A stretch of DNA of 64,000 nt from a virus. Shown here piece by piece: positions 4,427-33,276 of this stretch. The notes under the pieces are model-generated. The model had not been told where the DNA came from. It saw only the letters and a list, made by a program, of their open reading frames with translations, and ran no database searches. The position numbers were made by a program, and so were the translations under genes. Numbering within the stretch: the stretch's first letter is position 1; the number at the start of each line of letters is the position of its first letter. The stretch is from positions 22,754 through 86,753 of IMG/VR virus record IMGVR_UViG_3300043777_000365; one strand, 5' to 3'.

Positions 4427-4464
4427 GGTTTTGACCCATCGCCTGCCGAAGCTACCACCGACCC

Positions 4465-5460
4465 CTAAGTCTGAGGGCCGGTCGGGGCGAGCGGAGTGGC
4501 TCCGGCGGTCGGCGGGAGGGCCTGGCCGGTCTGCGTGTTGAAAGGCATGTTGAGCTGGCGGCTCACACCCTGCCGCGTCTGCACGTACGCGGAGAACCTC
4601 GTGATCTGCGGGGTCACCGGGTCGGAGTAGGCCTGCACCGCGCACTTCAGGACCTCGGGCTCGAGGGAGAACTGCGACTGGAGCGCCGCGGCGAGCTGGT
4701 TGCGCACGGCGGCCGTGCCCAGCGTCTTCACCTTGTCGGCGAGCCCCACCCCGTACGTGAGCGGCAGGTGCGCGAATGCCCCGGGCCGGCTCATCGCCCG
4801 GCGGTAGAGCCGCTTGAGCAGGGCGACGATCCCCTGCTCGACGGCGTAGTCGCCCGAGTCGTCCACGACGAAGGCCCCGAGCGTCACGAGGCCCCCGCCC
4901 ACGCTCGTCGCGACGGCGGCGGTGCTCGCGCCGATGGTCGACCCGGCGATGCCGGACTGGCTCTGCGGGTTGGCGAAGTCGCGCGTGGGCAGAGCCTGGT
5001 CCGAGCTCGCGACGACCAGCTGCTTGAGCACCCCGTAGAGCGTGTACGACTGGGTCAGCGGGAACATCGGCACCCCGCCCGACGTCGTCAGCCCTGAGAG
5101 CGTGATGGTGTACTGCGCCGGGTACGGGCTCATCGGCCGGTCCATCACGACGTCGATCTCGGAGCTTTGAATGGTGTCGGAGTAGTCGACGGTGGTGCCG
5201 GCCGAGACCGCCGTCACCGTGCGGACCGGGTTGTTGTCGTAGCCGACCGTGCCGGCCACCGCGGCGACCGTGTAGTGGGACGGGTCGGCGCCGTCGGCCG
5301 GGTCGAGCACGCCGGACACGTACGGGACGACGTTGAAGTAGAGCCGCACGACGTTCTCGGCGACGGCGACCGCGTAGAGCAGCTCGAGCCCGCCCGTGGA
5401 GGAGTCGGGGGTGCCGCCCCAGTTCGACCCGCCCCAGTTGGCTTCGCCCCAGCCGGGCAT
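4465..5460 (-). CDS. Baseplate wedge protein with C-terminal gp25/gpW-like domain
   Basis: Start MPGWGEANW; C-terminal DDSGDYAVEQG...PGAFAHLPLTYGVGL resembles gp25-like sheath initiators; lies between spike and J. Confidence 0.6.
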   Translation of the reverse strand: MPGWGEANWGGSNWGGTPDSSTGGLELLYAVAVAENVVRLYFNVVPYVSGVLDPADGADPSHYTVAAVAGTVGYDNNPVRTVTAVSAGTTVDYSDTIQSSEIDVVMDRPMSPYPAQYTITLSGLTTSGGVPMFPLTQSYTLYGVLKQLVVASSDQALPTRDFANPQSQSGIAGSTIGASTAAVATSVGGGLVTLGAFVVDDSGDYAVEQGIVALLKRLYRRAMSRPGAFAHLPLTYGVGLADKVKTLGTAAVRNQLAAALQSQFSLEPEVLKCAVQAYSDPVTPQITRFSAYVQTRQGVSRQLNMPFNTQTGQALPPTAGATPLAPTGPQT

Positions 5461-20725: not shown

Positions 20726-20776
20726 CGCGAAAGACTCCTACGGGGCGAGTTCGTCCGGGTGGACGGTTCCGCGGCT

Positions 20777-20834
20777 CCCTGGGGTCCACGCTGGTCTCGA
20801 TCGACCTGTCCGCCGTGGTAGCGGTGTTCGGGGG
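20777..20834 (-). ncRNA. Candidate structured cis-regulatory RNA in the sheath 5' leader
   Basis: 37 of 45 nt identical to the capsid leader motif; pseudoknot-capable; lies downstream of TTGACG-N18-GACTCT (20879-20850). Confidence 0.55.
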
Positions 20835-20890
20835 CTTGGCTTGGGGGAGAGAGTCGCGCGCGGAGGCCGGATCCGTCAAGGAGCCCACCT

Positions 20891-20910
20891 TTGGAAACCC
20901 GGGTTTCCAA
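20891..20910. repeat. 20-bp palindrome copy 5
   Basis: Exact; between the sheath promoter and a divergent gene. Confidence 0.95.
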
Positions 20911-20941
20911 CCCCGCCCCCGAGCGCGGCATGATGCTCCCC

Positions 20942-21406
20942 ATGAGCACCAACGGGATCACCACACGGGACAAGAAGATGCCTCTGGAGGCCTACGTCCT
21001 CGCGCACGCGTGCGGCCGGCTCGTCGTCGGGGCGGCGTGGCAGGAGGATGAATGGCAGCCCATCCCGCCGACCATCGACCTGACCGGGCCGCACCTGCAC
21101 CGGGCGCCCCTCGTGCTCTTCCCCGCCTACGACCTGCGGGTGGACCTCGTGCGCAACGGCCCCGGCATCGCCCAGAACTTCCAGGTGCTGCCGCTCTTCA
21201 ACCTGCTCAACCCGGGGTCGGTCCGGGTCCTCCCCGACGACTGGCGCATGTCGATCATGCACTGCACCGGCGAGGAGCGGCGCGTGCTCGCCGCCCAGCT
21301 CGAGAACGTGCAGGTCCTCGTCGCCGACATGCGCGCGTCGCACGAGCGGGCCACCGCCGAAGGCGGCGGCGGCGGGGCCCCCCGCATCATCGTCCCGGGC
21401 CGCTAG
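20942..21406 (+). CDS. Hypothetical protein (counter-oriented cassette)
   Basis: GGCATGAT-N7-ATG just after a palindrome. Confidence 0.65.
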   Translation: MSTNGITTRDKKMPLEAYVLAHACGRLVVGAAWQEDEWQPIPPTIDLTGPHLHRAPLVLFPAYDLRVDLVRNGPGIAQNFQVLPLFNLLNPGSVRVLPDDWRMSIMHCTGEERRVLAAQLENVQVLVADMRASHERATAEGGGGGAPRIIVPGR

Positions 21407-22281
21407 ACCGCCTCGTCCTCGGCGGTGGAGGCGCTCGCGTAGGCGGGGGTCTCCACGTCGACGGTGACGTTCGGCGTCATGAGCGCGTACGCGACGAGCC
21501 GCACGACGTTGAAGTCGAGGCGGACCTTGTGCACGGCCGAGCGCCGGTTGCGGATGGCTCCGTCGTCGCGCTCCCACTCCGACCCGGTCAGCGTGAAGCG
21601 CGCCGTCTCCCCGTAGTAGTCGGGCATCACCAGGAGGGTGCCGCCGACCCCGTCGGCCGGGACGAGCATCTGCTCCACCATGCTCATCAGCCCGCGCAGG
21701 AGGCCGAGCTGCGACGCGTAGACGTGGAGGGTGACCTCCTCCGAGTGCGTCCACATCGGCACGACCACCGTGCCCGCGCCGTACACGTCGACGGTCGTGG
21801 CGTCCGGGTTGGGGGTGAAGCCGTGCGGCGTCTTCTCCACCGGCCCACCCGCGCACGTGATGGACGGGTAGACCATGTCGGTCTCGGGGTCGGGGTCGTC
21901 GACGTAGAAGTTGCCCGGGGGCAGCAGCCCGGAGGCGGCCGGGGGCAGCCCCGGCTGGGCGGACGGGTCCACCTTGTTGCCCCGCCGCCGGTAGGGGACC
22001 TCGGTCAGGTACCGCCCGAGCGCCTGCAGGGCGCACGTGCGCCCGTCCACCGGGGCGCTGCCGGGGTCGGCGATGAGCGGGAGCACGTTGCCGAGCAGCG
22101 TCCCGGAGGAGGTCTGGAACTGGTACTGGGCCCCCTGCGCGAGGATCTGCGAGTGGCCGGTGGGGACGGTGGCCGGCACGAGCGGCTGCGGGGGCATGCG
22201 CGCGGGGGGCCGCGGCGGCTGCGCGGCCGAGTCGTAGGGCCAGCGCGGGTCGCGCCTCGGCGGGTTGTAGGTCGGGCGCAC
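21403..22281 (-). CDS. Tail completion/terminator-like protein
   Basis: TAAGCT-N7-GTG start; lies upstream of the sheath gene; YPSITC motif. Confidence 0.6.
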   Translation of the reverse strand: MRPTYNPPRRDPRWPYDSAAQPPRPPARMPPQPLVPATVPTGHSQILAQGAQYQFQTSSGTLLGNVLPLIADPGSAPVDGRTCALQALGRYLTEVPYRRRGNKVDPSAQPGLPPAASGLLPPGNFYVDDPDPETDMVYPSITCAGGPVEKTPHGFTPNPDATTVDVYGAGTVVVPMWTHSEEVTLHVYASQLGLLRGLMSMVEQMLVPADGVGGTLLVMPDYYGETARFTLTGSEWERDDGAIRNRRSAVHKVRLDFNVVRLVAYALMTPNVTVDVETPAYASASTAEDEAV

Positions 22282-22296
22282 GCAGCAGAGCTTACC

Positions 22297-22316
22297 TTGG
22301 AAACCCGGGTTTCCAA
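22297..22316. repeat. 20-bp palindrome copy 6
   Basis: Exact; between divergent promoters. Confidence 0.95.
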
Positions 22317-22334
22317 GACGGCATGATGGGACCC

Positions 22335-22715
22335 ATGCCGAAGAACCCACCGGATGACATCTTGGGCGAGGTGATGTCGGGGGCTTGCCTCGCGACGTAC
22401 GAAGGGTTCGTCCGGTGGGACGCTGCGCTCGACGACCGGGCCGTCCACCACTGCGGCCACTGCATGGGGCACTTCGTGTACGTGCCGAAGGGAGCACCCC
22501 GCCGGATGAGCGACGCGTCCAACGTCGAGGGCTTGCGCATCCACGACCTCGGCGACGAGTGCTTCGTCGTGACCAGGCGGCACCGGATGGTCCACTTCTC
22601 CCTCACCGACGAGCTGCTCGGCCGCAGGTCCCCGGTCTTCGAGGATTCGGACATCGTCTCCGTGACCACGACGCTGGCTGCGGCCGAGGCCGCGCTCAGG
22701 CTCGCGTCCCTCTAG
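22335..22715 (+). CDS. Hypothetical protein (counter-oriented cassette)
   Basis: GGCATGAT-N7-ATG after a palindrome; CGHC motif. Confidence 0.6.
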   Translation: MPKNPPDDILGEVMSGACLATYEGFVRWDAALDDRAVHHCGHCMGHFVYVPKGAPRRMSDASNVEGLRIHDLGDECFVVTRRHRMVHFSLTDELLGRRSPVFEDSDIVSVTTTLAAAEAALRLASL

Positions 22716-22736
22716 CGCACCTTCTTGAGCTCCCGC

Positions 22737-23354
22737 TCAGAGCGAGAGTCGGAGCTGCGCGTGCCTCTCGATGTACTCGGCGAGGGCCCGAAGCTTGCTC
22801 GGGCTGCCTTTCATGTGGCCCTCGGCGAGATTGCAATGCGTGCACAAGAATCCACGGACCTGCCTGGTTACGTGATCATGGTCGAGGTGAGTACCCCTCC
22901 CAGGCTTCAGCTTGTCTCTACAAGCCGCGCATCGTCCCTTCTGTTTTTCCAAGAGCCTCGCTTGGTCCTCCTTGGATATCCCGTACACGATCTTCCGCTT
23001 GGTGGCGGCTTGGCGCTCCGTGTGTCCAGGGCGAGCTCGGTGGGCAGTCGCTGCACGTTGGGCGCAATCCAAACAGTTGCCCAACCACGTAGTCCCCTTT
23101 TTAGGCTGCCCTCTTCGCAGCGATCCGCACTTCGAGCATGACCTGAGAACACCTGGCGGAGGTCGAGGCTTCATCCCTTTTTCCCTCCGCTCTTGCTCCC
23201 GTTCCGCTCGGACCTTCACGGCGTTGGCCGGCACCTTGTACCAAGCTCGGCTCCAAGCCTTCCGGTACTCGCGGATGCAAGGTGAACAATGTCCTTGCGA
23301 GTCGCGCTCACTTCCACCGCACTTGCCGCACGGATGTCGTCTACGATCACTCAT
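22737..23354 (-). CDS. Recombination endonuclease VII-family (HNH-like) endonuclease
   Basis: YGIS...QKGRCAAC...HLDHDHVTRQVRGFLCTHCNLAEG. Confidence 0.9.
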   Translation of the reverse strand: MSDRRRHPCGKCGGSERDSQGHCSPCIREYRKAWSRAWYKVPANAVKVRAEREQERREKGMKPRPPPGVLRSCSKCGSLRRGQPKKGTTWLGNCLDCAQRAATAHRARPGHTERQAATKRKIVYGISKEDQARLLEKQKGRCAACRDKLKPGRGTHLDHDHVTRQVRGFLCTHCNLAEGHMKGSPSKLRALAEYIERHAQLRLSL

Positions 23355-23420
23355 CGTCGCCTCTCATCCAGGTGATGGTCGGGCCCGGAGCGTTAGTAGC
23401 GCTGCCGGGCTCACTTCATT

Positions 23421-23972
23421 TTACTTCACCTTCGCCAACTCCCGCTCTACTTCCTCTTTGATGAACGTGGGCACCCTCTTTTCCGCCTTCTCCAAAATGC
23501 GAAGACCGGTACCTCCGAAGATGCCCTTGGCCTGCATGCTCTTGGCGATAGCCCAGGCTATGGACGTTGCCTCGGCCTTGCTGGCCTTCACTTGTCGAAC
23601 TCTCCCACTCGCGCTGGTAACGGTTCTCCCGCCCAAGCCTTTCCGTTGGACCCACTCTGTGAGCGCAGCGATGAGCTTACGACCGATCTTCACATGACCA
23701 GGCCGGACTCCTAAATCCACAAACGGTGCGTGCGGCGACGAGTTTTGGACGATGACCTCACCCTCGCTCTTCACCGGCTGCACGCGCCAGCCAGCTCGGT
23801 AGGCCCCCTTGTCGACGGGCATCCGCGAGCCGAAGGACGGGATGACGTCGGCGACGATGTGCTCGACGGTCTTGTGGCCGGCCGCGACGAGGCCCCGGAA
23901 CGCCGCCTCGCGGAGCCCGCCCTTGATGTCCTCGAGCATCACCCCGGCGTCCTTGAGCGAGTAACTCTTCAC
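23421..23972 (-). CDS. Neck protein, HK97 gp10-like
   Basis: MPVDKGAYRAGW...NSSPHAPFVDLG matches the PVDTG.L..S...N...YA.FVE.G family pattern. Confidence 0.7.
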   Translation of the reverse strand: MKSYSLKDAGVMLEDIKGGLREAAFRGLVAAGHKTVEHIVADVIPSFGSRMPVDKGAYRAGWRVQPVKSEGEVIVQNSSPHAPFVDLGVRPGHVKIGRKLIAALTEWVQRKGLGGRTVTSASGRVRQVKASKAEATSIAWAIAKSMQAKGIFGGTGLRILEKAEKRVPTFIKEEVERELAKVK

Positions 23973-23989
23973 CGAGGCATCATAAGGGC

Positions 23990-24508
23990 ATGCCCAACAA
24001 CGTCGAGCACCCGTACCGACCCGAGCCCGTCGTCCAGCTCAGCTATCCCGGCCGAGCCCAGCTCGGGCTCATGGCCGCGGCGATCCTCGTGCTCGTCGGT
24101 TGGTGCGCGCTCGAGATGAACAAGGTCGGGCGACTCGAGCACCGGCTGGACGAGATGGCCGCGGCGCAAGCGGCGTGGCTGGCCAACTTCCCGCCGACGT
24201 CGTCCCACCCCTTGGCGATGACCGACGGCCTGGGGGTCCTGCACCTCGAAGAGGCCGCGGCGTTCAACAAGGAGGCCCACCCGACGAGCGGGGTCATCCT
24301 CTGGGTCACCGACGACGGAGACTACGAGACGCTGCACCTCCGGGGCCCGGGCAACGGCGGCGACATCTTGTTCACGCTCGCCAAGGGTGGGGTGCGGTCG
24401 GCTTCGCCGACCGACCTCGTCATGGGACCACCGTTCATCCCGGGGCAGGCCCTCAACCTTTCCTTCCAAACTCAGGGTGGGGCTCAGCCCTCGTCGCCCA
24501 GCCCGTAG
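23990..24508 (+). CDS. Hypothetical membrane-anchored protein
   Basis: GGCATCAT-N6-ATG; N-terminal hydrophobic helix. Confidence 0.6.
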   Translation: MPNNVEHPYRPEPVVQLSYPGRAQLGLMAAAILVLVGWCALEMNKVGRLEHRLDEMAAAQAAWLANFPPTSSHPLAMTDGLGVLHLEEAAAFNKEAHPTSGVILWVTDDGDYETLHLRGPGNGGDILFTLAKGGVRSASPTDLVMGPPFIPGQALNLSFQTQGGAQPSSPSP

Positions 24509-25104
24509 GCGCTCGACCCGTCGCGCGCGGGGTCCTCCGAGATCCTCTCGAGCACCAGCCTCCACTGCACGCTGGTCTCGTCGAGCGCGGGCTGGGCCGC
24601 GAGCCGGTACTTCTGCCGCAGCGGCAGCCCCTCGTGGCGGCCGTCCTCGACGATCTCGTAGAAGAAGCTCACCGGCTGCGGGACGCGGTCGGCCGGGTGC
24701 GGCCCGCACGGGAGCAGCTGGACCGTCGGGCTCGACGCGTTCACCTCCTCGAACACCCCGGCCTTGACGCTGTAGAGCCCCGTGAGCTGGCTCTCGGTGA
24801 GGGTGGCGCTCACCTCCTCGAGCCTCACCGACCCCGTCGCCAGGTAGCCGGCCCCTCCCGCCTGGAACCCGACGGAGTCGAGCCCGACGACCTTGGGCGT
24901 GGGCAGGAGCTCGAACCGGTCCACCTCGTACGGGGTCCCGTCCCCGCGCTCGTTGCCGCCCCACCGCACCCACACGAGGAACACCCGGCGCGAGCGGGCC
25001 CCGAGCCGCACGGCCATCTGGCGGATGCGGTCGACGGGGCGGGCGAGCCGGTTGGCCAGGCTCCGGGTCGCCGCGCGCGGGGTGAGCGGCTTGGGCTCGG
25101 ACAT
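24484..25104 (-). CDS. Head closure/neck-like protein
   Basis: 206 aa ORF upstream of the gp10-like gene; call rests on position. Confidence 0.5.
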   Translation of the reverse strand: MSEPKPLTPRAATRSLANRLARPVDRIRQMAVRLGARSRRVFLVWVRWGGNERGDGTPYEVDRFELLPTPKVVGLDSVGFQAGGAGYLATGSVRLEEVSATLTESQLTGLYSVKAGVFEEVNASSPTVQLLPCGPHPADRVPQPVSFFYEIVEDGRHEGLPLRQKYRLAAQPALDETSVQWRLVLERISEDPARDGSSAYGLGDEG

Positions 25105-25239
25105 CTCAGAAGCGTACTGCGTCGTCGGACAGCTTGCTCCTCAACGTCGCCCGGAGGCATGCCCAGCAGCCAGCGACCCACCCGACGAACGTCGCCGAGT
25201 AGTACTCGCGGAAGGGGACCTTCCAGCCGAGCGAGGTCT

Positions 25240-25479
25240 TCACGCCGGCTCCAGGTCGACCGGCTCGTCCGCCGGCGGCTCGTGGGCCGCCTGGGGCTCC
25301 TCGAGCTTCTCGAGCGGGACGGGCTTGGGCTTCTGCCGGCCTTGGACCATGTCGCCGAGCTCGGAGCAGAGCCGGACCATCGCGGCGGTCACGTCGTGCC
25401 CGACCCCGACCGCGTCGACGCCCTCGACGCGGGCCTCGTGCTGCCCGTGCTCGTTCTTGGTGAAGACGACCTCGCTCAC
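25240..25479 (-). CDS. Hypothetical protein
   Basis: GTGA coupling to the upstream gene; VSEVVFTKNEHG. Confidence 0.45.
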   Translation of the reverse strand: MSEVVFTKNEHGQHEARVEGVDAVGVGHDVTAAMVRLCSELGDMVQGRQKPKPVPLEKLEEPQAAHEPPADEPVDLEPA

Positions 25480-25844
25480 TTGGGGCTCGCTTTCTTGGCG
25501 GCCTTCTTGGCCTGGACGAACGGCGCCGGCTGGTACGCGGCCCCGGCCGGCGGGACGGTGCCTGCGTCGGCCTGGGAGGCCTCGAAGGACGCGACCACCT
25601 TCTCGAGGTCGGGGACGAGCGCCTCGACGAGGCCGCAGCCGACCTGGACGTCGGCCGCGACGATGCCCACCGGGGTCCCGGCCGGGATGACGCTGCCGGC
25701 GAGGGCGGCCGAGATGCAGGCCGTGTCCGCGTCGTTGAAGATCGCGTCCGCCTCCGCGACCTCCTTCGCCGTGCAGCCCATCCACGCCCCCCAAGCGACC
25801 ACCAAGAGCACGCACGCCGCCATGAAGCTCACCACGGTTTTCAT
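25476..25844 (-). CDS. Putative lipoprotein
   Basis: MKTVVSFMAACVLLVVAWGAWMGC is signal/lipobox-like; AGAGG SD. Confidence 0.55.
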   Translation of the reverse strand: MKTVVSFMAACVLLVVAWGAWMGCTAKEVAEADAIFNDADTACISAALAGSVIPAGTPVGIVAADVQVGCGLVEALVPDLEKVVASFEASQADAGTVPPAGAAYQPAPFVQAKKAAKKASPK

Positions 25845-25884
25845 CTGGACCTCTTTCCTGAAGGTCGGGGTATAACAGCCCCGT

Positions 25885-26283
25885 TCAACCCACGCGAGCG
25901 TTGATGCCGCTTGCACCGATGCCGCCGAACCTCGCGTCGAACGGGTTGCGGTAGCAGCTCATGATCTGGAGCATGTCGTCGACGAAGAAGATGTACCGCT
26001 GCACGAGCTGCTCGAACTGCTGGGGGTTGATCTCGATGTCCCCGACCTTCGAGGCCACGAGGGTGTCCGTGTCGTCGAAGATGATCGCGTAGACCCGGTC
26101 GCACCGGTCGAGCCCCTCTCGGAGCAAGAACTCCGCGCTCGGGATGATGGCGTCCATCGCCGCCTCGAGGATGAAGAACGGCTCCATCGCGGCCGGGTTC
26201 CCCAAGAAATACGTCTGGGCCGCGCTCACGTTGGGCCAGCCACCGTGTTTCCGAACCCTTGCCTTCTCTTCCGGGGTGAGCAC
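25885..26283 (-). CDS. Head-tail adaptor-like protein
   Basis: MLTPEEKARVRKH...ASKVGDIEIN; TAGCCT-N6-GTG; position supports the call. Confidence 0.6.
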   Translation of the reverse strand: MLTPEEKARVRKHGGWPNVSAAQTYFLGNPAAMEPFFILEAAMDAIIPSAEFLLREGLDRCDRVYAIIFDDTDTLVASKVGDIEINPQQFEQLVQRYIFFVDDMLQIMSCYRNPFDARFGGIGASGINARVG

Positions 26284-26318
26284 GGGACGAGGCTACCACG
26301 CGCGGCATGATGGGCCGC

Positions 26319-27134
26319 ATGGACACCCCGACCTCGTTCCGCCGCCATCTCCTCGACCACGGTTACCTGAAGCTCGTGGACGCTTGGGGGCGAGACGGGC
26401 TCGAGGAGGCGGTCGGCGAGGAGTCGATCATCGCGGCCGCGCGCATGTCGACGGGCAAGGGCTTCCTCGGGTGGGGTAAGTCGACATGTCGACTTTGTCG
26501 GTGGGAAGGTCAACCGGCGGACTTCCAAAGAGGCTGCCCAGGTTGTTCTCACGAAAAGACCTATGACTATCAACCTGGCGATGAGAAGCTCCTGCGCTTC
26601 CTCTACGAGAACAAGCACGCGACCCCGTTCGAGATGGCCGGAATCACCGTCGAGGTCATGGCTCCCATCTTCGTCTTCCGGGAATGGCACCGCCACCGCA
26701 CACAATCTTTCAATGAAATGAGCGCCCGCTACATCCCGCTCCCCGACGTGAACCACGTCCCCTCGGTCGATCGCCTGATGCTCAACTCGAAGACGAACAA
26801 GCAGGCGGGGACCGTTCAAGGCGCAGAAGAGCTGACCCCGGGGGTCGCCGAGCTCGACAGGCGGGAGCTCGAGGAGGAGTGGGCGAGGCAGGAGGCGTTC
26901 TACCAACGTCGGCTGAAGCGCGGGGTGCCGAAGGAGCTCGCGCGCACGCACATCGGGACGGGCCGCTACTCGCGCATGAGGGCGAGCGCGAACCTCCGCA
27001 ACTGGCTCGGCTTCGTGACGCTGCGCTCCGCCCCCGCCGCCATGTGGGAGATCCGGATGTACTCGGACGCGCTCGGCGAGCTCGTCGGGCAGCTCTTCCC
27101 GCGCACGTGGGCCCTCTTCCAGGAGAGGCGATGA
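26319..27134 (+). CDS. thyX: Flavin-dependent thymidylate synthase
   Basis: HATPFE, APIFVFREWHRHRTQSFNEMSARY and NLRNWLGF...AMWEIR ThyX motifs. Confidence 0.95.
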   Translation: MDTPTSFRRHLLDHGYLKLVDAWGRDGLEEAVGEESIIAAARMSTGKGFLGWGKSTCRLCRWEGQPADFQRGCPGCSHEKTYDYQPGDEKLLRFLYENKHATPFEMAGITVEVMAPIFVFREWHRHRTQSFNEMSARYIPLPDVNHVPSVDRLMLNSKTNKQAGTVQGAEELTPGVAELDRRELEEEWARQEAFYQRRLKRGVPKELARTHIGTGRYSRMRASANLRNWLGFVTLRSAPAAMWEIRMYSDALGELVGQLFPRTWALFQERR

Positions 27135-27298
27135 GCACCTGGAACGACGAGCAGTCGGCCAACTGGATCGTGGTGGGCCTCGCGCTCTTCCTGTTCGTCG
27201 CGACCTCGTGCGTGCAGTGCGCCGGCCCGTGCTCCTGGCTCATGTGGGAGCCGGTGACGGACCTGCCCGCCCGCTGCCTGCCTGGGACGGGTCGCTAG
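27131..27298 (+). CDS. Small membrane protein
   Basis: ATGA-coupled to thyX; hydrophobic helix with several Cys. Confidence 0.5.
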   Translation: MSTWNDEQSANWIVVGLALFLFVATSCVQCAGPCSWLMWEPVTDLPARCLPGTGR

Positions 27299-27726
27299 AG
27301 CGAGTCGAACCGCCTCGGCGCCGCCTGCGGCCGCAGTGGGGCGATCGGCGGCGGGGGAACGGCCGACGGGGCGGCGAACGCCCGGACGATGCTCGGAGGC
27401 GGCAGCGCTGACTGCGGCACCCCGGCGTCCGCCGGCTGCACCGGCACCGTCAGCACCTCGTGCTCCCGGGTGTAGCCCTCGACGTACTGGCGCAGGCGCT
27501 CGAGGTCGTCGTGCTGCTGGCGCACCTCGGCCTGCGTCTCGAGGATGCTCTTGGTCAGCTCGAGGTAGCCGGCGCGCGCCCCTTCCTCGGGCTTGAACAC
27601 CGCCCCCACCGCCGTCACCAGCCCGGCCGCCGCGAGCAGCAGCGCCGCGTACCCGCGCAGGCTCGACGAGCGCGCGTGCCGCAGCGCCTCGAGCGCCGCC
27701 TCCTCCGCCTCCAAGACCTCGCCCAT
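27295..27726 (-). CDS. Membrane-anchored coiled-coil protein
   Basis: TAGGCT-N7-ATG; TM helix followed by coiled coil and a Pro-rich tail. Confidence 0.55.
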   Translation of the reverse strand: MGEVLEAEEAALEALRHARSSSLRGYAALLLAAAGLVTAVGAVFKPEEGARAGYLELTKSILETQAEVRQQHDDLERLRQYVEGYTREHEVLTVPVQPADAGVPQSALPPPSIVRAFAAPSAVPPPPIAPLRPQAAPRRFDSL

Positions 27727-27795
27727 GCCACCGAGCCTACCCCAAGCCCCGGCGCGAGCATTGCTAGCTCGCCCTCCCGGAGGCACGAAACCAAG

Positions 27796-27987
27796 ATGGT
27801 CAACCACCGGCAGCAGTGGCAGGCAGAGGTGCGCGCGCGGCAGCTCAGGCTCGCCAAGTGCGAGCAACTAGGGCACTTGTGGGACGCGGGGTTCTTCGGG
27901 AGGGAGGTGCGGTGCGACCGGTGCGGCGCCTGCGCCGACCCCCCGGCCGTCGGCGAGATGCCTCCCGCCGTTGGCGAGATGCCTTAG
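27796..27987 (+). CDS. Small Zn-finger-like protein
   Basis: GGAGG SD; C...GH.W...C.RCG; C-terminal PPAVGEM duplicated. Confidence 0.5.
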   Translation: MVNHRQQWQAEVRARQLRLAKCEQLGHLWDAGFFGREVRCDRCGACADPPAVGEMPPAVGEMP

Positions 27988-28295
27988 CTCCCGACCACCC
28001 CGCCGCCCGACTGCCACGTGAACTCGCCCACCGGGCGCTTGGCCCGGCAGTGGGGGCACGTCAGCTGCCCGATCACCCCTGGGTTGCGGGCCATCTCCTT
28101 GGCCACGTCCTGGGCGAGCACCGACAGGATGCCGCACTGCTTGTGCACGACCGCGTCACGAACGGGCCGGGGGCCGGCCTGGGCTGGCTTAGGCGCGCCT
28201 GCGGCGTCGGCCTGGGGCTTTGCCGCGTCCGGGGCCGTCGGGGCTTCCTGGGGCGGGCTGGGGGCGGCGGGCGGGGGTGCTTTCGGGTCGGCCAT
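27984..28295 (-). CDS. Small Zn-ribbon protein
   Basis: TACAGT-N6-ATG; HKQCG...CPHC...PVGEFTW. Confidence 0.6.
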   Translation of the reverse strand: MADPKAPPPAAPSPPQEAPTAPDAAKPQADAAGAPKPAQAGPRPVRDAVVHKQCGILSVLAQDVAKEMARNPGVIGQLTCPHCRAKRPVGEFTWQSGGGVVGS

Positions 28296-28315
28296 GGGGG
28301 GACTGTACACCAGCG

Positions 28316-28335
28316 TTGGAAGCCCGGGTTTCCAA
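28316..28335. repeat. Palindrome copy 7 (1 mismatch)
   Basis: TTGGAAGCCCGGGTTTCCAA. Confidence 0.9.
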
Positions 28336-28445
28336 CCCGCGCGGCGGGACGCGGGGCGGGTCCGCGTGCACGACCACCCAATCGTTCGCGACCTCGCTCC
28401 ACGCGACGTCCTTGCGGAACGCCCAGGGTGGGTGCTCCGGGAAGC

Positions 28446-28631
28446 TCACGCGGGCTTGGGCCCGGGGCAGGTGCCTGGTCGGTCGGGGAGGTCGCCCGCG
28501 CAGAGGCAAGGTGGCCGATGCCCGACCTTTAGGCAGCACGGGCCGCCGCACGCGAGCTTCGTCCTGCACCACGGCCCCTCGCGGTTGTCGGTGGCGGGGG
28601 TGGGCCTCGGCCTCGTCGGGTCGGTGCTCAT
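28446..28631 (-). CDS. Small Cys-rich protein
   Basis: ATGA coupling; multiple Cys. Confidence 0.4.
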   Translation of the reverse strand: MSTDPTRPRPTPATDNREGPWCRTKLACGGPCCLKVGHRPPCLCAGDLPDRPGTCPGPKPA

Positions 28632-28933
28632 CGGCCGGTCCTCCGGATCTCCTCCAGGATGGCGCGGGCGCGACGCACCATGGCGGCCTGGTGGAGGTCG
28701 CTCATCGACCGCACCTCCATGCGGACCTCGGCCTCGCCGAGGTTGCGGACCGGACTCCGTTGGTGTTCGCCACCATGCTTGTGGCAGAGGAGGTCCCCCA
28801 CCGAATCGTCGGGGTAAACCTCGGCCGGCTCCTGGCAAAAGACGCAGGTGGCGAGGTTCCGGTTGTTGTGGAGGAACGCGAGCGCGGTCATCTCCGTGTT
28901 GAGGTCGAGGCTCCTGCGCAGCTCGTCGCTCAT
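28628..28933 (-). CDS. Hypothetical protein (CxxC...CxxH)
   Basis: ATGA coupling; MSDELRRSLD. Confidence 0.5.
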   Translation of the reverse strand: MSDELRRSLDLNTEMTALAFLHNNRNLATCVFCQEPAEVYPDDSVGDLLCHKHGGEHQRSPVRNLGEAEVRMEVRSMSDLHQAAMVRRARAILEEIRRTGR

Positions 28934-29211
28934 CGGGAGAGCCCTCGACGCCGCAGCTCCTCGACGGCGTCGTCCACCTCGCGCTGCAACCGCCTGGCGA
29001 AGTTCCCGAGGTGGTCCGGGTTGAAGTCGTCCTCCGGCACACGGATGACCGCGCTGCACTCGTGCCGGGCCATGCGCACCTCCACGACGGCCGCGTGGAT
29101 CATGAGCGTCAAGAGGACCACGGCACATTCCCGTGGGGTCCAGTTCTTCGACCCAGACTCGAGCTGCACGACGAGCCTCAGCTTGGAGCAAACCTCGTTC
29201 ACGGTCGGCAT
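28930..29211 (-). CDS. Hypothetical protein
   Basis: TGATG coupling; MPTVNEVCSK. Confidence 0.5.
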   Translation of the reverse strand: MPTVNEVCSKLRLVVQLESGSKNWTPRECAVVLLTLMIHAAVVEVRMARHECSAVIRVPEDDFNPDHLGNFARRLQREVDDAVEELRRRGLSR

Positions 29212-30500
29212 CAGACCAGCTCCGGGTTCTTGAACAGCTCCGCGAACGTGAACGGTGGCGCGCTGACGGCCGGGTTCCACTGCTGCATCGCGGCGCAGTA
29301 CTTCGCCATGATGAGGTCCTGCGACTCGGGGGCGAGCCCGGACCACCTCCGCAGCTCGTCCCCCTCCAGCGTCGACGCGAGCCGCAGGCGCAGGTCGGGG
29401 CACGTCGGCAGGTGCTGCTCGCCGGGGATGCACCGGCAGGTCGACGACTTGCCGTGCCGGTCGGCAAGAACGGGTCCACCATCTCCAGTCCGGGTTGTGA
29501 TCGTGTTCATCGCCTCCAGGTTCTCGGGGGTGTTGGGCTTGGCGACGTAGGTCTTCACCGCCTCCTCCACCTGCCGCTGGACCACGTCCTTCAAAGCTCG
29601 CTCGGCCTTCTCGAACCTGCCCCTCCAATAATCCTCGTTCGTCGCGTGGAAAGCCGCCGTCTCGACCCAGTTGGTCGCGAACTTCTCGAGCATCGCCACG
29701 TAGTCGGCCGCCGGCCCGGGGATGTCCTTGAGGTTGGGGAACCACTTGGGCCGTAACGCCTCGACGATCTCCTCGGCCATCTTCCTCCGGTCTCGGTCGA
29801 TGTCCGCCTGCGGCTTGTCGAGCTGGCCGCTCGCGCTCTCGTCGACGAGGTATGCCGGGTATGCCGTGCGGCCGATCCCGCAGCGGTTGCACACCAGCAT
29901 CTTCCCGTCCTCCGTCGACCAGTCGTGCTGCTCGCACGGTCGCGACGGCTGCCTTTCAGGCTGGCTGACGTCGCCCCGCGCGAGCGAGTTTCCGTAGCCC
30001 TCGGCCCGACGACGCGCGGGCTCCCGGGCCATGACCTCCTCGAACTTCTCCTTCCAATACCTCGCCCCCTTCCAGTCACACTCGGGCACGTCGACGACGG
30101 TGGTCGCGTCCCCCATGTCGACGTGGACGGTGCACGGTGGCCCGCTTCGCCCCTCTAGGTAGAGGGTCACCCGATGGGGCATCGGGGTGCCAGCGTCCAC
30201 CGCGTAGAGGGTCACCCGATGGGGCATCGGGGTGCCAGCGTCCACCGCCCCCAGCGGGATCGGGACGCTGCCGACGATCCTCCCGTCGAGCGCGACGTGC
30301 ACCGCGGGCCCGTCCACCTTCGCCGGCTCCTCCCGCGGGTCCAGGTGGCGGAACAGCACCCACGTCCCCTCGAGCAGAGACGGCTGCCCCGTCCCGTCGA
30401 GCCCCGTCACGTACTCGAGCCCGTCCGACCTCGCGTCGTTCAGGAACTTGACCCTCGCCTCCCGAGAGGACCCGACGAACTGCTTGTACACGTAACCCAT
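29211..30500 (-). CDS. Mosaic hypothetical protein with an internal 15-aa duplication
   Basis: GGAGG SD before MGYVYKQF; 429 aa. Confidence 0.6.
   Translation of the reverse strand: MGYVYKQFVGSSREARVKFLNDARSDGLEYVTGLDGTGQPSLLEGTWVLFRHLDPREEPAKVDGPAVHVALDGRIVGSVPIPLGAVDAGTPMPHRVTLYAVDAGTPMPHRVTLYLEGRSGPPCTVHVDMGDATTVVDVPECDWKGARYWKEKFEEVMAREPARRRAEGYGNSLARGDVSQPERQPSRPCEQHDWSTEDGKMLVCNRCGIGRTAYPAYLVDESASGQLDKPQADIDRDRRKMAEEIVEALRPKWFPNLKDIPGPAADYVAMLEKFATNWVETAAFHATNEDYWRGRFEKAERALKDVVQRQVEEAVKTYVAKPNTPENLEAMNTITTRTGDGGPVLADRHGKSSTCRCIPGEQHLPTCPDLRLRLASTLEGDELRRWSGLAPESQDLIMAKYCAAMQQWNPAVSAPPFTFAELFKNPELV
30159..30248. repeat. Exact 2 x 45 bp tandem duplication
   Basis: gtagagggtcacccgatggggcatcggggtgccagcgtccaccgc occurs twice and encodes AVDAGTPMPHRVTLY. 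Confidence 0.95.
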
Positions 30501-30613
30501 TGCCTGCCTCCGACCCTGAAATAGGAAAGGCCGGCCGAGCAAACCGTTAGCGCCCAGGCCGGCCTGGCGCCCGGACCATCCGGCCGCCTCCCCCATCATG
30601 CCGCGAGGACCGC

Positions 30614-31009
30614 TCAGCCCGCGGCCTCCGCCGCCTCGGCCGCCTGGTCGATCTCCTCGAGCTTCACCCCCTGCCGGCGGATGGACGGGATGTCGAAGTA
30701 CCTCTCGTCGAGCTCCTTGCCCTCGTTGATCTTGAACTGCCGGCCGCCGCGGCCGACGACGAGCTGCACCATCCCGTCCTGGTTCCGGGGCACCTTGGTC
30801 ACCCGGTACTTCCTCGGGAGGGGGACGGCGTCGACCCGCTCCTGCCGCTCCTGCTGGAAGGTGCGCTGCACCTCCTGGCGGGCGAGCGGGGGCAGCGGCT
30901 GGCGCGGGCCCCCGTTCATCCCGGAGCCGGACAGCTCCTGGTCGTCGGGGTTCCCGCTGCCCCCGCCCTCCTCGTACACCTGGTTCGGCTTGCGCTCCGC
31001 TCTCGGCAT
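30614..31009 (-). CDS. Hypothetical virion-region protein
   Basis: 131 aa, GGAGG SD, downstream of the capsid gene. Confidence 0.6.
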   Translation of the reverse strand: MPRAERKPNQVYEEGGGSGNPDDQELSGSGMNGGPRQPLPPLARQEVQRTFQQERQERVDAVPLPRKYRVTKVPRNQDGMVQLVVGRGGRQFKINEGKELDERYFDIPSIRRQGVKLEEIDQAAEAAEAAG

Positions 31010-31057
31010 GTTCGTGGCCTCCGGAGGACGAAGCTACCACGCGGCATGCTGGTGGGC

Positions 31058-31300
31058 ATGGGAGATGTCCACGCGAGCGTCTGCATCTTCTGCCTCCGGC
31101 CCGAGGGCGACGCCCGCGCCTGGTGCCCTGACAACCCCGGCCGCGGCTGCACCTACGGGCTCGCCCACGAGCACCCGGCCGGGCCGAGGCCGAAGCCCAA
31201 GACGGCCACCGTCGCCAACGCGAGGTGCCTCAAGTGCGGGCTCCACCCCAAGAACCCGGCCTACCGCGTCATCGTGTGCGCCCACGAGCACGCGGCTTGA
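31058..31300 (+). CDS. Small Cys/His-rich protein
   Basis: GGCATGCT-N7-ATG; two CxxC...C..HEH units. Confidence 0.55.
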   Translation: MGDVHASVCIFCLRPEGDARAWCPDNPGRGCTYGLAHEHPAGPRPKPKTATVANARCLKCGLHPKNPAYRVIVCAHEHAA

Positions 31301-31309
31301 ACCAAGGGT

Positions 31310-31329
31310 TTGGAAACCCGGGTTTCCAA
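31310..31329. repeat. 20-bp palindrome copy 8
   Basis: Exact; between convergent genes after the capsid gene. Confidence 0.95.
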
Positions 31330-31372
31330 AAAGCACGAGGGTCCGGAGGCCGTGGCCGCCGAGCCCTCGTCC
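31328..31372 (-). terminator. Probable intrinsic terminator after the major capsid gene
   Basis: ACGAGGG...CCCTCGT stem followed by GCTTTT, running into a palindrome copy. Confidence 0.45.
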
Positions 31373-31418
31373 GGCCATGCGCCGGTTGCCTAGCTCAGAC
31401 AGAAGCTAAGTAGCTATG

Positions 31419-32825
31419 TCACGTGGCACTTTGTAGGACCACGGCCCGCTTGAAGAGGGCCGTGCTGGTCGTCGCCCCGAGGTCCGTCGGCACCGGGAAG
31501 CAGGTGCTGATGGACCAGGTCGCGCGGACCATGTCCTGCAGTCGGTCGATCGGGCTCGCGATGACCAGGCGGATGCGGTCCGTCTGGATCGAGATGCCCT
31601 GGTTGACGACGTCGAACTCGCCCACCTTGCCCGTGACGCCGGCCTCCGAGACGTACTGGTTCTCGTTGACCCAGCGCTCGTAGAGGGCGCCGCGGCCCGT
31701 GATGAGGGTCTGCGAGATCTGCACCCCCGTGTAGTTGATGATCTCGCTGCCGAGCTCCTGCGCGTACAGCGCCGGCTGCCCGGAGACCGTGAGCGTCTGG
31801 TTGCCCGTGTTGATGGGCGCCGGCGACTCCGTGTTCATGAAGAACTTGATGCCGACCTGCGGGACGGGGAAGCCGTTGATGTAGCTCTCCGACTGGGGCA
31901 GGGCGGTGTAAAGGCGCTGGTAGGCCGGGTCCGCGAACAGCTGGGCCGCGACGTTCGGGGCCAGGTGCGCGTGGTAGAAGCCGTCCTCGTGCGGCTGGAC
32001 GTTGTTCGCCCGGAGCACGGTGGCCGCGTTCAGGAAGTCCTGCATCACGACGATGTCGGCGCTGCTGATGGCGTCGATGCTGTTGCCGCCGCCCGACCGG
32101 ATGACCACCGGGGCGTTGTTGCTGTAGATGGGCGTGCGGACCGCGAGCGCCGAGCCGATCTGCGCGGACAGCTGGAGGATGCCCGGGCCGTTCAGCGGGT
32201 CGGCCGGGTTCAGGCTCGTGTACCCGATGACGTTCGCCGTCACCGTCACCGTCGGGCTGACGATGATGCTGATGGGCAGCGGGTTGGCCGAGGACACGCC
32301 CACCGGGCGCACCGTGGAGCCCATCTGCACGACCGTCGTGAACCCGTTGAGCGACGCCACGTTGAGGACCGTGTCGGTCGTCAGCTGGGTCGCCGTCGTG
32401 AGCGTCTGCCCGGACAGGTACGCCTGGAAGAGCGCGTCGCGGGAGACCCGGTTCACCGTCTGCCCGGCCTGCAGGCCGAGCTGCTGCAGGTTCCTCATGA
32501 ACTGGTCGGCGTTCGACCAGACCGAGGTCGGCATGTGCGTGTCGATGCCGCTGCCGTAGCGCAGGAGGTTGACGTACCACTGCTCGTACTGGAGCGCCTG
32601 CGGCTGCGGGTCCTGCCCCGCGATGAGCGGGGTGATGGCCGGCGCGAGCAGGCTCGGGCGGGTCTCGATGGTCTGCACGCCGGTGTGCGCCGGCCACTCC
32701 TCGGCCATCGCCTCGGTGCGGTACAGGAGGGCGGGGTAGAGGGCGTCGTGGAACGCGCGCTCGAGCAGGCCGGTCTGCACCAGCTGGACGATCGACGGGG
32801 GGATGCCGAGGATTACACCGGCCAT
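31419..32825 (-). CDS. Major capsid protein
   Basis: 468 aa; strong AGGAG SD; LRANNVQPHEDGFYHAHLAP resembles N4-gp56-like capsid motifs; follows decoration and scaffold genes. Confidence 0.8.
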   Translation of the reverse strand: MAGVILGIPPSIVQLVQTGLLERAFHDALYPALLYRTEAMAEEWPAHTGVQTIETRPSLLAPAITPLIAGQDPQPQALQYEQWYVNLLRYGSGIDTHMPTSVWSNADQFMRNLQQLGLQAGQTVNRVSRDALFQAYLSGQTLTTATQLTTDTVLNVASLNGFTTVVQMGSTVRPVGVSSANPLPISIIVSPTVTVTANVIGYTSLNPADPLNGPGILQLSAQIGSALAVRTPIYSNNAPVVIRSGGGNSIDAISSADIVVMQDFLNAATVLRANNVQPHEDGFYHAHLAPNVAAQLFADPAYQRLYTALPQSESYINGFPVPQVGIKFFMNTESPAPINTGNQTLTVSGQPALYAQELGSEIINYTGVQISQTLITGRGALYERWVNENQYVSEAGVTGKVGEFDVVNQGISIQTDRIRLVIASPIDRLQDMVRATWSISTCFPVPTDLGATTSTALFKRAVVLQSAT

Positions 32826-32901
32826 GGTTGTGGACTCCTAACTTCGGGATGAACGACGACGAGAGAGGGCTTTCGCTCCTCGATCCGCTCGCTCACTTCG
32901 C

Positions 32902-32958
32902 CCCGGGAGTCCACGCTGGCCGCTGGGGGCCTGTCCGCCGTGGTCGCGGTGTTGGGGG
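32902..32958 (-). ncRNA. Candidate structured cis-regulatory RNA in the capsid 5' leader
   Basis: Shared with the sheath leader; includes a compensatory stem change. Confidence 0.55.
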
Positions 32959-32980
32959 TCCGTGCTCTTACGTTGGCGCC

Positions 32981-33010
32981 AGAATGCGGGCAGCCCCGCG
33001 GCTAAGTCAA
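32981..33010 (-). promoter_or_regulatory. Sigma70-like promoter for the capsid gene
   Basis: TTGACT-N18-CATTCT. Confidence 0.5.
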
Positions 33011-33027
33011 GCGCCGGGGTTGCCCCG

Positions 33028-33276
33028 TCACTTCCCGGGCGGCCTCTTGTCCAGGCCCTTCTCGGCCAGGAGCGCGGCGAGGTCCTCCTCGTGGAGGCAG
33101 TCGACCATGCACGCGCCGCTCATGCCGGCGGTCGTGGTCGGAGCGATGTAGCCGTTGCAGTAGTCGTTGCCGGGGGTCGCGTCGACCAGCACTCCGACAG
33201 CCGTGATGCGCCCCGTGTTGCCGAGCTGGATGACCCTGTCGCCGTTCTTCGCTTCTCTTCCGTTTCGGTAGTGCAT
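33028..33276 (-). CDS. Hypothetical phage protein
   Basis: AGGAG SD; MHYRNGREAKNGD...DYCNG. Confidence 0.7.
   Translation of the reverse strand: MHYRNGREAKNGDRVIQLGNTGRITAVGVLVDATPGNDYCNGYIAPTTTAGMSGACMVDCLHEEDLAALLAEKGLDKRPPGK

Follow-up and report, generated by a model that had tools for sequence, protein, structure and literature searches.

The locus described here raises the question whether two similar stretches of DNA, one ahead of the major capsid gene of a phage and one ahead of its probable tail sheath gene, encode a structured RNA that regulates the genes behind it. The DNA analyzed, called the window in the following, comprises 64,000 nucleotides (positions 22,754 to 86,753) of the IMG/VR virus record IMGVR_UViG_3300043777_000365. 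This record holds 86,753 bases with a G + C content of approximately 69% and is estimated to be 93% complete. A preliminary description of the window had pointed to two 45-nt stretches and had drawn a pseudoknot with an inner hairpin in each of them. Comparison with related phages revealed that the major capsid mRNA carries a structured RNA of about 50–60 nt in its 5′ leader. Its fold, its occurrence, the place of the two window copies in the family and a possible mechanism are described below.

A Pseudoknot in the Leaders of Related Capsid Genes

Homologues of the capsid protein were numerous. Among 8000 candidates scored, 930 reached E ≤ 0.001; most of them were 53–60% identical and many were located on contigs of 85–100 kb. 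When viral contigs were scanned with 26 aligned homologues, 157 relatives were confirmed, and the best 80 were used, each with 1.5 kb upstream of the gene. Individual loci carry L numbers in this text. Within the 260 nt ahead of the relatives' capsid genes a string of the type ACGCGG-CACACC-GGCGG-UCAACA-GGUGG was found repeatedly. The fold of the family consists of a closing helix, P0, which encloses an H-type pseudoknot formed by the helices P1 and P2 with an A-rich loop 3. In P2, four bases of the P1 loop are paired with a strand at least 14 nt downstream.

The three-helix structure was counted on an alignment of 22 leaders made with MAFFT alone (A3). P2 was 92% paired, and two of its pairs were distributed as GC12/GU6/AU2 and CG17/AU4. 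One pair of P1 was CG in 14 leaders and UA in 8, none being broken. The covariation score of 0.301 compares with 0.038–0.146 for slid partners and was reached by none of 500 shuffles. An independent run of RNAalifold on A3 picked exactly P2. The covariance model R1 holds P0 and P1 only, so that P2 could be tested on an alignment which had not been fitted to it. This alignment (A5) contains 41 R1 matches in 40 distinct rows. Here the unmodelled P2 was 98.1% paired, with AU17/GC14/GU6 and two other combinations in one pair and CG34/AU5 with no broken row in the second. The covarying P1 pair (CG31/UA8/GC1) was likewise never broken, and the score was again reached by 0 of 500 shuffles. In the alignment of R1 matches the loop nucleotides are conserved more strongly than plain stability would need. 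The distance of P0 varies slightly among leaders and this helix was therefore tested by permutation. The two flanks of one leader gave a duplex energy of −7.75 kcal/mol versus −4.73 kcal/mol for foreign flanks, a difference found in 0 of 5000 permutations. At least ten distinct P0 sequences occur, including CCCC/GGGG, CCUAU/AUAGG, CGCUC/GAGCG and CACGAUG/CAUCGUG. Thus, the pseudoknot proposed in the preliminary description is real in the family, as compensatory changes are found among the relatives in P1, P2 and the closing helix P0.

The relatives were needed for this conclusion, since a pseudoknot can be drawn in any DNA this rich in G + C and two copies alone are no proof of a fold. Nested folds of the two 45-mers of the window were no more stable than those of shuffles (z −1.06 and +0.28). 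A generic finder for short H-type pseudoknots gave a mean best score of 24.9 for 65 unique leaders, which is no better than the means of the controls (reverse complements 25.8, shuffles 24.7, coding sequence 25.4). Alignment-free pseudoknot potential was consequently dropped as evidence.

Outside the motif, the strings GUAGCGGCA upstream and GCUGCGAAG or GCUGUGAAG downstream recur 25–35 nt to either side (L027, L035, L080, L056 and others). These upstream and downstream strings, read by eye, might form a further outer helix; the wider-flank alignment A6 was poor.

Occurrence of the Element

The element belongs first to the major capsid gene, and most relatives carry one copy per genome at this site. 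R1 matched the capsid leader of 54 of the 80 loci with E ≤ 7.8e-6, and three further loci gave E values of 0.01–0.02. All 57 leader matches (E ≤ 0.021) are on the gene strand. When 24 whole virus records were compared with R1, 19 contained a match with E ≤ 0.01, and in 16 of these there was exactly one strong match, located at the capsid gene. The few second matches in whole records were weak, two of them falling within the sheath coding sequence. The clade is large and consists of uncultured soil and freshwater phages of 85–100 kb which possess a homologue of the probable tail sheath gene (22 of 25 related records). The closest capsid relative in a cultured phage is that of Streptomyces phage Kromp (30.5% identity), and its capsid gene has no leader. 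Scanning metagenomes for closer relatives yielded only L136, which is the same contig as L004, and scanning genomes yielded three contigs of metagenome-assembled genomes with doubtful binning.

Across the leaders the motif ends 42–108 nt ahead of the start codon. Among 64 unique leaders, 18 have a promoter-like pair of the form TTGACN/TTGCNN-N16-19-TANNNT, or a close variant, ahead of the motif. Such pairs were rare in the controls, with 2 in 64 reverse complements and 0 in 64 coding sequences. Their −10 box usually ends 18–32 nt before the motif, and the element hence probably begins approximately 10–25 nt into the RNA. In many relatives a terminator-like hairpin is followed by the promoter-like pair and then by the motif. 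Two loci carry more than one copy. In L039 the capsid-leader pseudoknot occurs twice in tandem within a single leader (1272–1320 and 1392–1442), and L051 has a second, degenerate copy 300 nt upstream (1101–1145).

The Two Copies of the Window

In the window, the 45-nt stretches at 20784–20828 and 32909–32953 of the minus strand, in front of the sheath and the capsid gene, respectively, agree at 37 of 45 positions, as had been described. The pairings drawn in them, CCGC/GCGG, CCACG/CGTGG and an inner hairpin with GGTC/GACC in the sheath copy versus GGCC/GGCC in the capsid copy, were all found. The likeness reaches 57 nt at 81% identity (20777–20833 versus 32902–32958; repeat family D11), and beyond it the flanks of the copies do not align. 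A 24-nt core pattern (up to 3 mismatches) matched twice in the window and not at all in 100 shuffles; a scan of the whole 86,753-nt record with this pattern found no third copy.

The canonical searches did not recover these copies. With its filters off, R1 scored 5.4 bits on the capsid leader and 4.2 bits on the sheath leader, and the alignments were unusable. When the canonical motif was used as an nhmmer profile, it found no variant leader at E < 3, and neither window leader. Because model and profile fail, membership of the window copies in the family has to rest on position, architecture and intermediates. The capsid element of the window stands 76 nt before the ATG and 22 nt after a CATTCT box, which is the same place as in canonical members. 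Twenty-five leaders were read by eye, namely 23 without a strong R1 match and in addition L138 and L139, which were outside the R1 search, and all of them have the same order of helices. Examples of variant leaders are CCGCG/CGCGG combined with CCACU/AGUGG, and CGCC/GGCG combined with CGUCG/CGACG. MAFFT places the window copies alongside canonical members by means of the shared flanks CCCGAACAC... and ...GGUACCCGGGG, the helix registers slipping by one column. In the joint variant alignments A7 and A8 the registers also shift by one column; no pairs were counted on these and no second model was built.

Several loci stand close to the window type. In L004, whose capsid protein is 82% identical, P1 and P2 are the same as in the window and the inner hairpin is missing. 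P2 reads CCACG/CGUGG in the window and in L004, CCGACG/CGUCGG in the capsid leader of L020, which equals one inserted G–C pair, CCGAC/GUCGG in the sheath copy of L020 and in L005, and CCGGC/GCCGG in the record of L006. The inner hairpin of the window, which had been described as part of the motif, is present with its compensatory change. It is, however, a lineage-specific insertion into loop 3, absent from L004 and from all canonical members. In view of position, architecture and intermediates, the window copies are very probably diverged members of the capsid-leader family. Besides the failure of R1 and of the nhmmer profile, one further result weighs against this assignment. When the L005, L020 and L006 types are aligned in five rows, all 40 cells pair and only one pair covaries (AU3/GC2), a result equalled by 53 of 500 shuffles.

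The Sheath Copy and Concerted Evolution

The preliminary description had tied the element to the capsid and the sheath gene alike. Both are indeed preceded by it in the window; within the clade it is primarily a capsid element. Of 13 upstream regions of sheath genes that were read, 12 had no motif, and mostly no leader of any kind, and only one contained the motif. A pattern scan of viral contigs gave 42 stretches, seven of which, placed by tblastn, carried the full motif. Like the window, the records of L020 and L006 have the element once at the capsid gene and once at the sheath gene. These three genomes make up the sub-clade of the window, to which the sheath copy is restricted.

Within each of the three genomes the capsid and the sheath copy share the P2 sequence and the features of loop 3, and these differ between the genomes (window; L147/L150; L170/L141). 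The window has CCACG/CGUGG and the inserted hairpin in both copies, the L020 record CCGAC/GUCGG and the L006 record CCGGC/GCCGG. The paired leader elements stand 6–12 kb apart in their genomes. The two leader copies of one genome evolve in concert. Gene conversion could account for this, as could selection for one common partner. The concerted evolution suggests that the capsid and the sheath mRNA answer to one common factor.

Complementarity to the Ribosome-Binding Site and a Proposed Switch

The 3′ half of the motif is complementary to the ribosome-binding site (RBS) of its own gene beyond chance. In 43 leaders, the last 26 nt of the motif were compared with the leader's own RBS region (−22 to +8). 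The mean duplex energy was −16.03 for the own RBS versus −13.50 for foreign RBS regions, a value reached in 0 of 5000 permutations, and 11 of the 43 leaders were in the best tenth. The controls were flat, with counts among 5000 permutations of 3925 for the 5′ half against the RBS, 2523 for the 3′ half against coding sequence, 4995 for the 3′ half against adjacent leader and 1095 for the 5′ half against coding sequence. The strands that pair with the RBS differ from leader to leader, for instance GGUGGAAAC/GUUUCCACC in L027, GUGGUCUCC/GGAGGCCAC in L043 and GAUCCUUCGGGG/CCCCGGAGGAUC in L030. For the capsid leader of the window, the nested minimum free energy fold pairs GUGGACUCC with GGAGUCCAC, which is the Shine-Dalgarno (SD) sequence with the following spacer (32838–32830, minus strand). 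The duplex energy in this leader is −30.8 kcal/mol, and none of the 42 foreign RBS regions pairs better than its own (rank 0.0).

Folding predictions point in the same direction. The predicted pairing probability between SD sequence and motif is 0.387 versus 0.219 for shuffled motifs; in 11 of 43 leaders the motif equals or exceeds 29 of its 30 shuffles. When the motif was barred from pairing, which mimics the folded knot, the predicted accessibility of the RBS rose from 0.405 to 0.507. In the window the predicted gain was from 0.37 to 0.55 for the capsid leader and only from 0.32 to 0.42 for the sheath leader. Many capsid genes among L004–L083 keep (U)UCCAC(C) in the 8–12 nt spacer between SD sequence and ATG. 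This string persists even in leaders such as L005 and L020, where it has lost its complement in the 3′ strand of P2.

The most likely interpretation of these data is a leader of two states. The 3′ half, comprising the P2 3′ strand and the bases that follow, could pair alternatively with the SD sequence and start region of its own gene. In the folded knot this strand would be locked away, the RBS would be free and translation would be on. With the knot unfolded, the strand would cover the RBS and translation would be off. Whatever stabilizes the knot, be it a protein of phage or host or a small ligand, would set the output of capsid protein and in the window also that of sheath protein. We give this translational ON-switch a probability of about one half; the alternation in vivo, its direction and the existence of an effector are inferred. 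The cis-regulatory RNA suggested in the preliminary description thus stays the best reading of the element, with function and effector, protein or ligand, being matters of inference. A more specific version would be a phage-borne riboswitch class, a ligand-sensing ON-type H-type pseudoknot of about 50 nt which gates translation of the capsid gene, in one sub-clade also of the tail sheath gene, in response to a small molecule or ion reporting the state of the infected cell. We regard this version as doubtful.

A number of observations speak against the switch or reduce the weight of the data in its favor. Accessibility also increased, to 0.468, when a control stretch was blocked, and the mean gain is modest; a gain of at least 0.2 was obtained in 11 of 43 leaders versus 5 of 43 with the control stretch. 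RBS complementarity is not universal (median rank 0.19). It is missing in L050, L063, L008, L069 and L065, all with a rank of 0.88 or higher, and it is unremarkable in the sheath leader of the window (−15.8, rank 0.26). The folding models used cannot score pseudoknots. The loci are related by descent, and the permutation counts given here and for the fold overstate independence. A single soil RNA run with related sequence was found (0.05 share of sampled words), and the assembly of reads from four runs against 20600–33100 gave contigs which were short or distant and did not reach the leaders.

Alternative Explanations

The fold might be constitutive and involve no switching. As a 5′-proximal structure it could guard highly expressed mRNAs from the 5′-end-dependent decay caused by RNase E/RNase J, or it could aid ribosome loading. 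Its location is suitable, the element being the first structure in the transcript, some 10–25 nt past the likely start, ahead of the genes for the most abundant virion proteins. The many members without RBS complementarity, the tandem copies of L039 and the many leaders without a terminator or an obvious expression platform would also be in line with such a role. It leaves the genome-specific complementarity between 3′ half and RBS unexplained, for which 0 of 5000 permutations and four flat controls were obtained, and the loops are conserved beyond the needs of simple stability. Moreover, the predicted single-stranded 5′ tail of 10–25 nt is long for a 5′-end protector. A constitutive fold is thus possible, if rather unlikely. 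A different objection concerns the window itself, whose copies might not be homologous to the canonical family. They would then be a separate lineage-specific leader sequence, such as a protein operator or a patch homogenised by recombination, and their pseudoknot potential would be coincidental. The low R1 scores with meaningless alignments, the nhmmer result, the equally good short pseudoknots in control sequence and the slipping helix registers could all be read in this way. Against it stand the same location in orthologous capsid leaders, after a promoter-like site and on the same strand, and the same order and sizes of P0, P1 and P2. In addition, 25 of 25 leaders read by eye show the architecture in variant form, the flanking strings CCCGAACAC and GGUACCCGGGG are common to both, and the window type differs from the types of L020 and L006 by compensated changes. 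We consider a separate origin unlikely.

Two further explanations move the action away from translation. The RNA could act in cis on RNA polymerase, like the put RNAs of phage HK022, and render the late operons terminator-resistant. The motif lies just past promoter-like sites which head long structural-gene units, its distance to the start codon is variable (42 to 108 nt), and palindromes able to act as terminators occur inside the late region, for example at 31310 after the capsid stop. Nevertheless, a put-like role does not explain the RBS complementarity. In the sub-clade, the sheath gene furthermore acquired a promoter and a copy of its own rather than being reached by read-through, no terminator-like sites were called in the window leaders, and put RNAs consist of two stem-loops without a pseudoknot. 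This explanation is very unlikely. Even more improbable, to the point of being barely credible, is that the conserved stretch acts as double-stranded DNA, for instance as the binding site of a late activator or repressor. Such a site could well adjoin promoter-like sequences, and the two copies of one genome are identical in their helix sequences, as sites of a single DNA-binding protein would be. However, the gene strand carries all 57 leader matches at E ≤ 0.021, including the 54 at E ≤ 7.8e-6. Genomes differ by compensatory changes whose arrangement is crossing and non-palindromic, and the stretch is located downstream of the −10 box in transcribed sequence.

Comparison with Known Systems

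The preliminary description had not recognized the motif as a known family, and the Rfam scan bore this out. No Rfam 15 family reached its gathering score in the 64-kb window, and at the gathering thresholds there were 0 matches in 20 related capsid loci with a total of 87 kb. Permissive scans (E limit 10 for the window sheath leader, 5 for three relatives) gave matches at chance level only, which were isrK with 11 bits versus a threshold of 50 and SECIS_2, MIR4380, the RhlA thermometer and ctRNA with 20–24 bits versus 45–85. The models of preQ1-I, SAM-II and SAM-V were without a match at the same limits, and none of the S15 and S4 operator families in Rfam matched the window or the relatives scanned.

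With the preQ1-I, SAM-II and SAM-V riboswitches the element shares topology and size, a short P1, a P2 formed from the P1 loop and a downstream strand, and an A-rich loop 3. These riboswitches exert control via access to the RBS, and a similar way of working is plausible for the capsid leaders. The family differs from them in its extra closing helix P0 and in the position of the SD sequence, which is outside P2 and 42–108 nt downstream. In addition, the 3′ strand of P2 is the anti-SD strand, so that folding should turn translation on, not off. The leader of T4 gene 32 is likewise part of a phage mRNA under translational control; it is long, and an H-type pseudoknot occupies its 5′ end, far ahead of the start codon. 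From this knot, gp32, the ssDNA-binding protein encoded by the gene itself, binds cooperatively to an A/U-rich operator without structure. Here, in contrast, the leaders are rich in G + C and structured according to prediction, the gene products are the major capsid protein and the probable sheath protein, and the 3′ strand of the knot is complementary to the RBS. In E. coli, the leaders of rpsO, bound by S15, and of the alpha operon, bound by S4, alternate between a pseudoknot and another fold, and the protein which binds the knot sets translation. These knots include or abut the RBS and trap the ribosome. From the put RNAs of HK022, which bind RNA polymerase and let it pass terminators further downstream, the family differs in structure, having a pseudoknot in place of two stem-loops. 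The motif hence resembles known pseudoknot devices in outline and belongs to none of them, given that it has no Rfam match, an SD sequence outside the knot and ON polarity.

A full-text literature search found no description of the motif. From the same source, the intergenic regions of IMG/VR, a catalogue of 8495 automatically predicted structured RNAs (DNAVirus_1...8495) has been published (PMC10690425, 2023). Its main text names no capsid-leader pseudoknot of this kind, and the catalogue, with lists and models in its supplements, may include the motif. We regard the element as a new RNA family that is widespread and well supported; the mechanism proposed for it is plausible.

Genes and Signals around the Copies

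The positions of the features are compiled in Table 1. By tblastn, the capsid protein is 28–30% identical to annotated major capsid proteins of cultured phages. The assignment of the 762-aa protein as a probable tail sheath protein is based on its Atlas neighbours, by features and by structure, which carry Phage_sheath_1 and Phage_sheath_1C; in Pfam it reached Gp18_domIII_N with an E value of 0.036, under the cut-off. As previously described, both genes have an AGGAG SD sequence, which is found 9 nt ahead of the ATG.

Table 1: Features of the capsid and sheath leaders and their surroundings (window coordinates).
Feature	Position	Strand	Sequence or basis
Capsid-leader element	32901–32958	−	Sequence; architecture by analogy with the capsid-leader family of the relatives
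Capsid copy, P0 5′ strand	32958–32954	−	CCCCC
Capsid copy, P0 3′ strand	32904–32901	−	GGGG
Capsid copy, P1 5′ strand	32949–32946	−	CCGC
Capsid copy, P1 3′ strand	32938–32935	−	GCGG
Capsid copy, P2 5′ strand	32943–32939	−	CCACG
Capsid copy, P2 3′ strand	32915–32911	−	CGUGG
Capsid copy, loop 3	32934–32916	−	Includes inserted hairpin GGCC 32931–32928 / GGCC 32921–32918
Candidate anti-RBS strand	32906–32914	−	GUGGACUCC; P2 3′ strand and next 5 nt; perfect complement of GGAGUCCAC
Sheath-leader element	20777–20834	−	Sequence; repeat family D11
Sheath copy, P0 5′ strand	within 20834–20830	−	CCC
Sheath copy, P0 3′ strand	20779–20777	−	GGG
Sheath copy, P1 5′ strand	20824–20821	−	CCGC
Sheath copy, P1 3′ strand	20813–20810	−	GCGG
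Sheath copy, P2 5′ strand	20818–20814	−	CCACG
Sheath copy, P2 3′ strand	20790–20786	−	CGUGG
Sheath copy, loop 3	20809–20791	−	Includes inserted hairpin GGUC 20806–20803 / GACC 20796–20793
Major capsid protein gene, 468 aa	31419–32825	−	PHROG 1357 major head protein, E 2.3e-14; G + C at third codon positions (GC3) 0.99
Probable tail sheath gene, 762 aa	18437–20725	−	Atlas neighbours; sub-threshold Pfam
Capsid RBS	32823–32839	−	SD AGGAG 32839–32835, spacer UCCACAACC, ATG 32825–32823
Sheath RBS	20723–20739	−	SD AGGAG 20739–20735, ATG 20725–20723
Capsid promoter-like pair	32981–33010	−	TTGACT 33010–33005, 18-nt spacer, CATTCT 32986–32981
Sheath promoter-like pair	20850–20879	−	TTGACG 20879–20874, 18-nt spacer, GACTCT 20855–20850
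Palindrome TTGGAAACCCGGGTTTCCAA, one copy	20891–20910	.	Between sheath promoter and divergent gene; not part of the RNA element

A TTGAC-N18 promoter had been proposed for both leaders. The pairs are present as described and are backed by the comparison with relatives, though not by a consensus scan. Scanning with an E. coli-type consensus called no promoter in either leader region, since the −10 boxes CATTCT and GACTCT are weak. The capsid pair fits the actinobacterial-style pattern that was used on the relatives. It stands 22 nt upstream of P0 and directly after the stop codon of an upstream open reading frame of 82 aa (33028–33276). No terminator was called in either window leader, and no terminator-like hairpin was present 3′ of the motif.

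According to the GC3 analysis the gene upstream of the sheath gene is on the opposite strand (plus strand, 20891/20942–21406). Consequently, the sheath transcript must start inside the gap of about 200 nt which holds the motif. The small plus-strand gene itself (20942–21406), which diverges from the sheath leader, has a GC3 of 0.96 and no family match. Its ATG follows 7 nt after CATGAT and the gene therefore looks leaderless.

Other Features of the Record

A perfect 20-bp palindrome, TTGGAAACCCGGGTTTCCAA, occurs in 16 copies in the window (up to 2 mismatches) and in 18 exact copies in the record, all of them intergenic. Sites are found, for example, at 1329, 6800, 9686, 20891, 22297, 31310, 36248, 41596 and 62024, the one at 31310 lying just after the capsid stop. 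Only 3 of the 16 copies have a CATGAT-type box and an ATG at 13–18 nt, and the idea of a fixed −35 or promoter part was rejected. The palindrome could be an operator or a bidirectional terminator. L034 and L082 have other palindromes at similar places.

The record further contains an array of clustered regularly interspaced short palindromic repeats (CRISPR) at record positions 4273–5048, 17.7 kb ahead of the start of the window, with 11 repeats of 36 nt and spacers of 35–48 nt. A link to the motif was discarded after comparison of 11 spacers with the whole record, in which none matched either leader. The best self-match of a spacer covers 17 of 18 bases in the sheath coding sequence (window 19273–19290, E 0.007). 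Finally, tandem imperfect 39-nt repeats rich in GAG/GAC/TCG/CTC triplets (families D5, D7 and D14) were observed in a coding region at window positions 12766–13092.

Significance

How phages outside the model systems control the amount and timing of their most abundant proteins is little known. The capsid gene considered here is a transcription unit of its own, located in many relatives behind a terminator and a host-type promoter, and it is headed by a conserved knotted leader. If the knot is a switch, virion production would have a new control point at the post-transcriptional level. High-GC bacteria could then be equipped with a small, portable regulatory part of the ON type. The knot would also be an orphan aptamer candidate, and its ligand or protein partner would show what the phage senses. 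Should the ligand-sensing riboswitch prove true, a clade of uncultured 90-kb phages would possess a metabolite-timed late switch on a host-type promoter.

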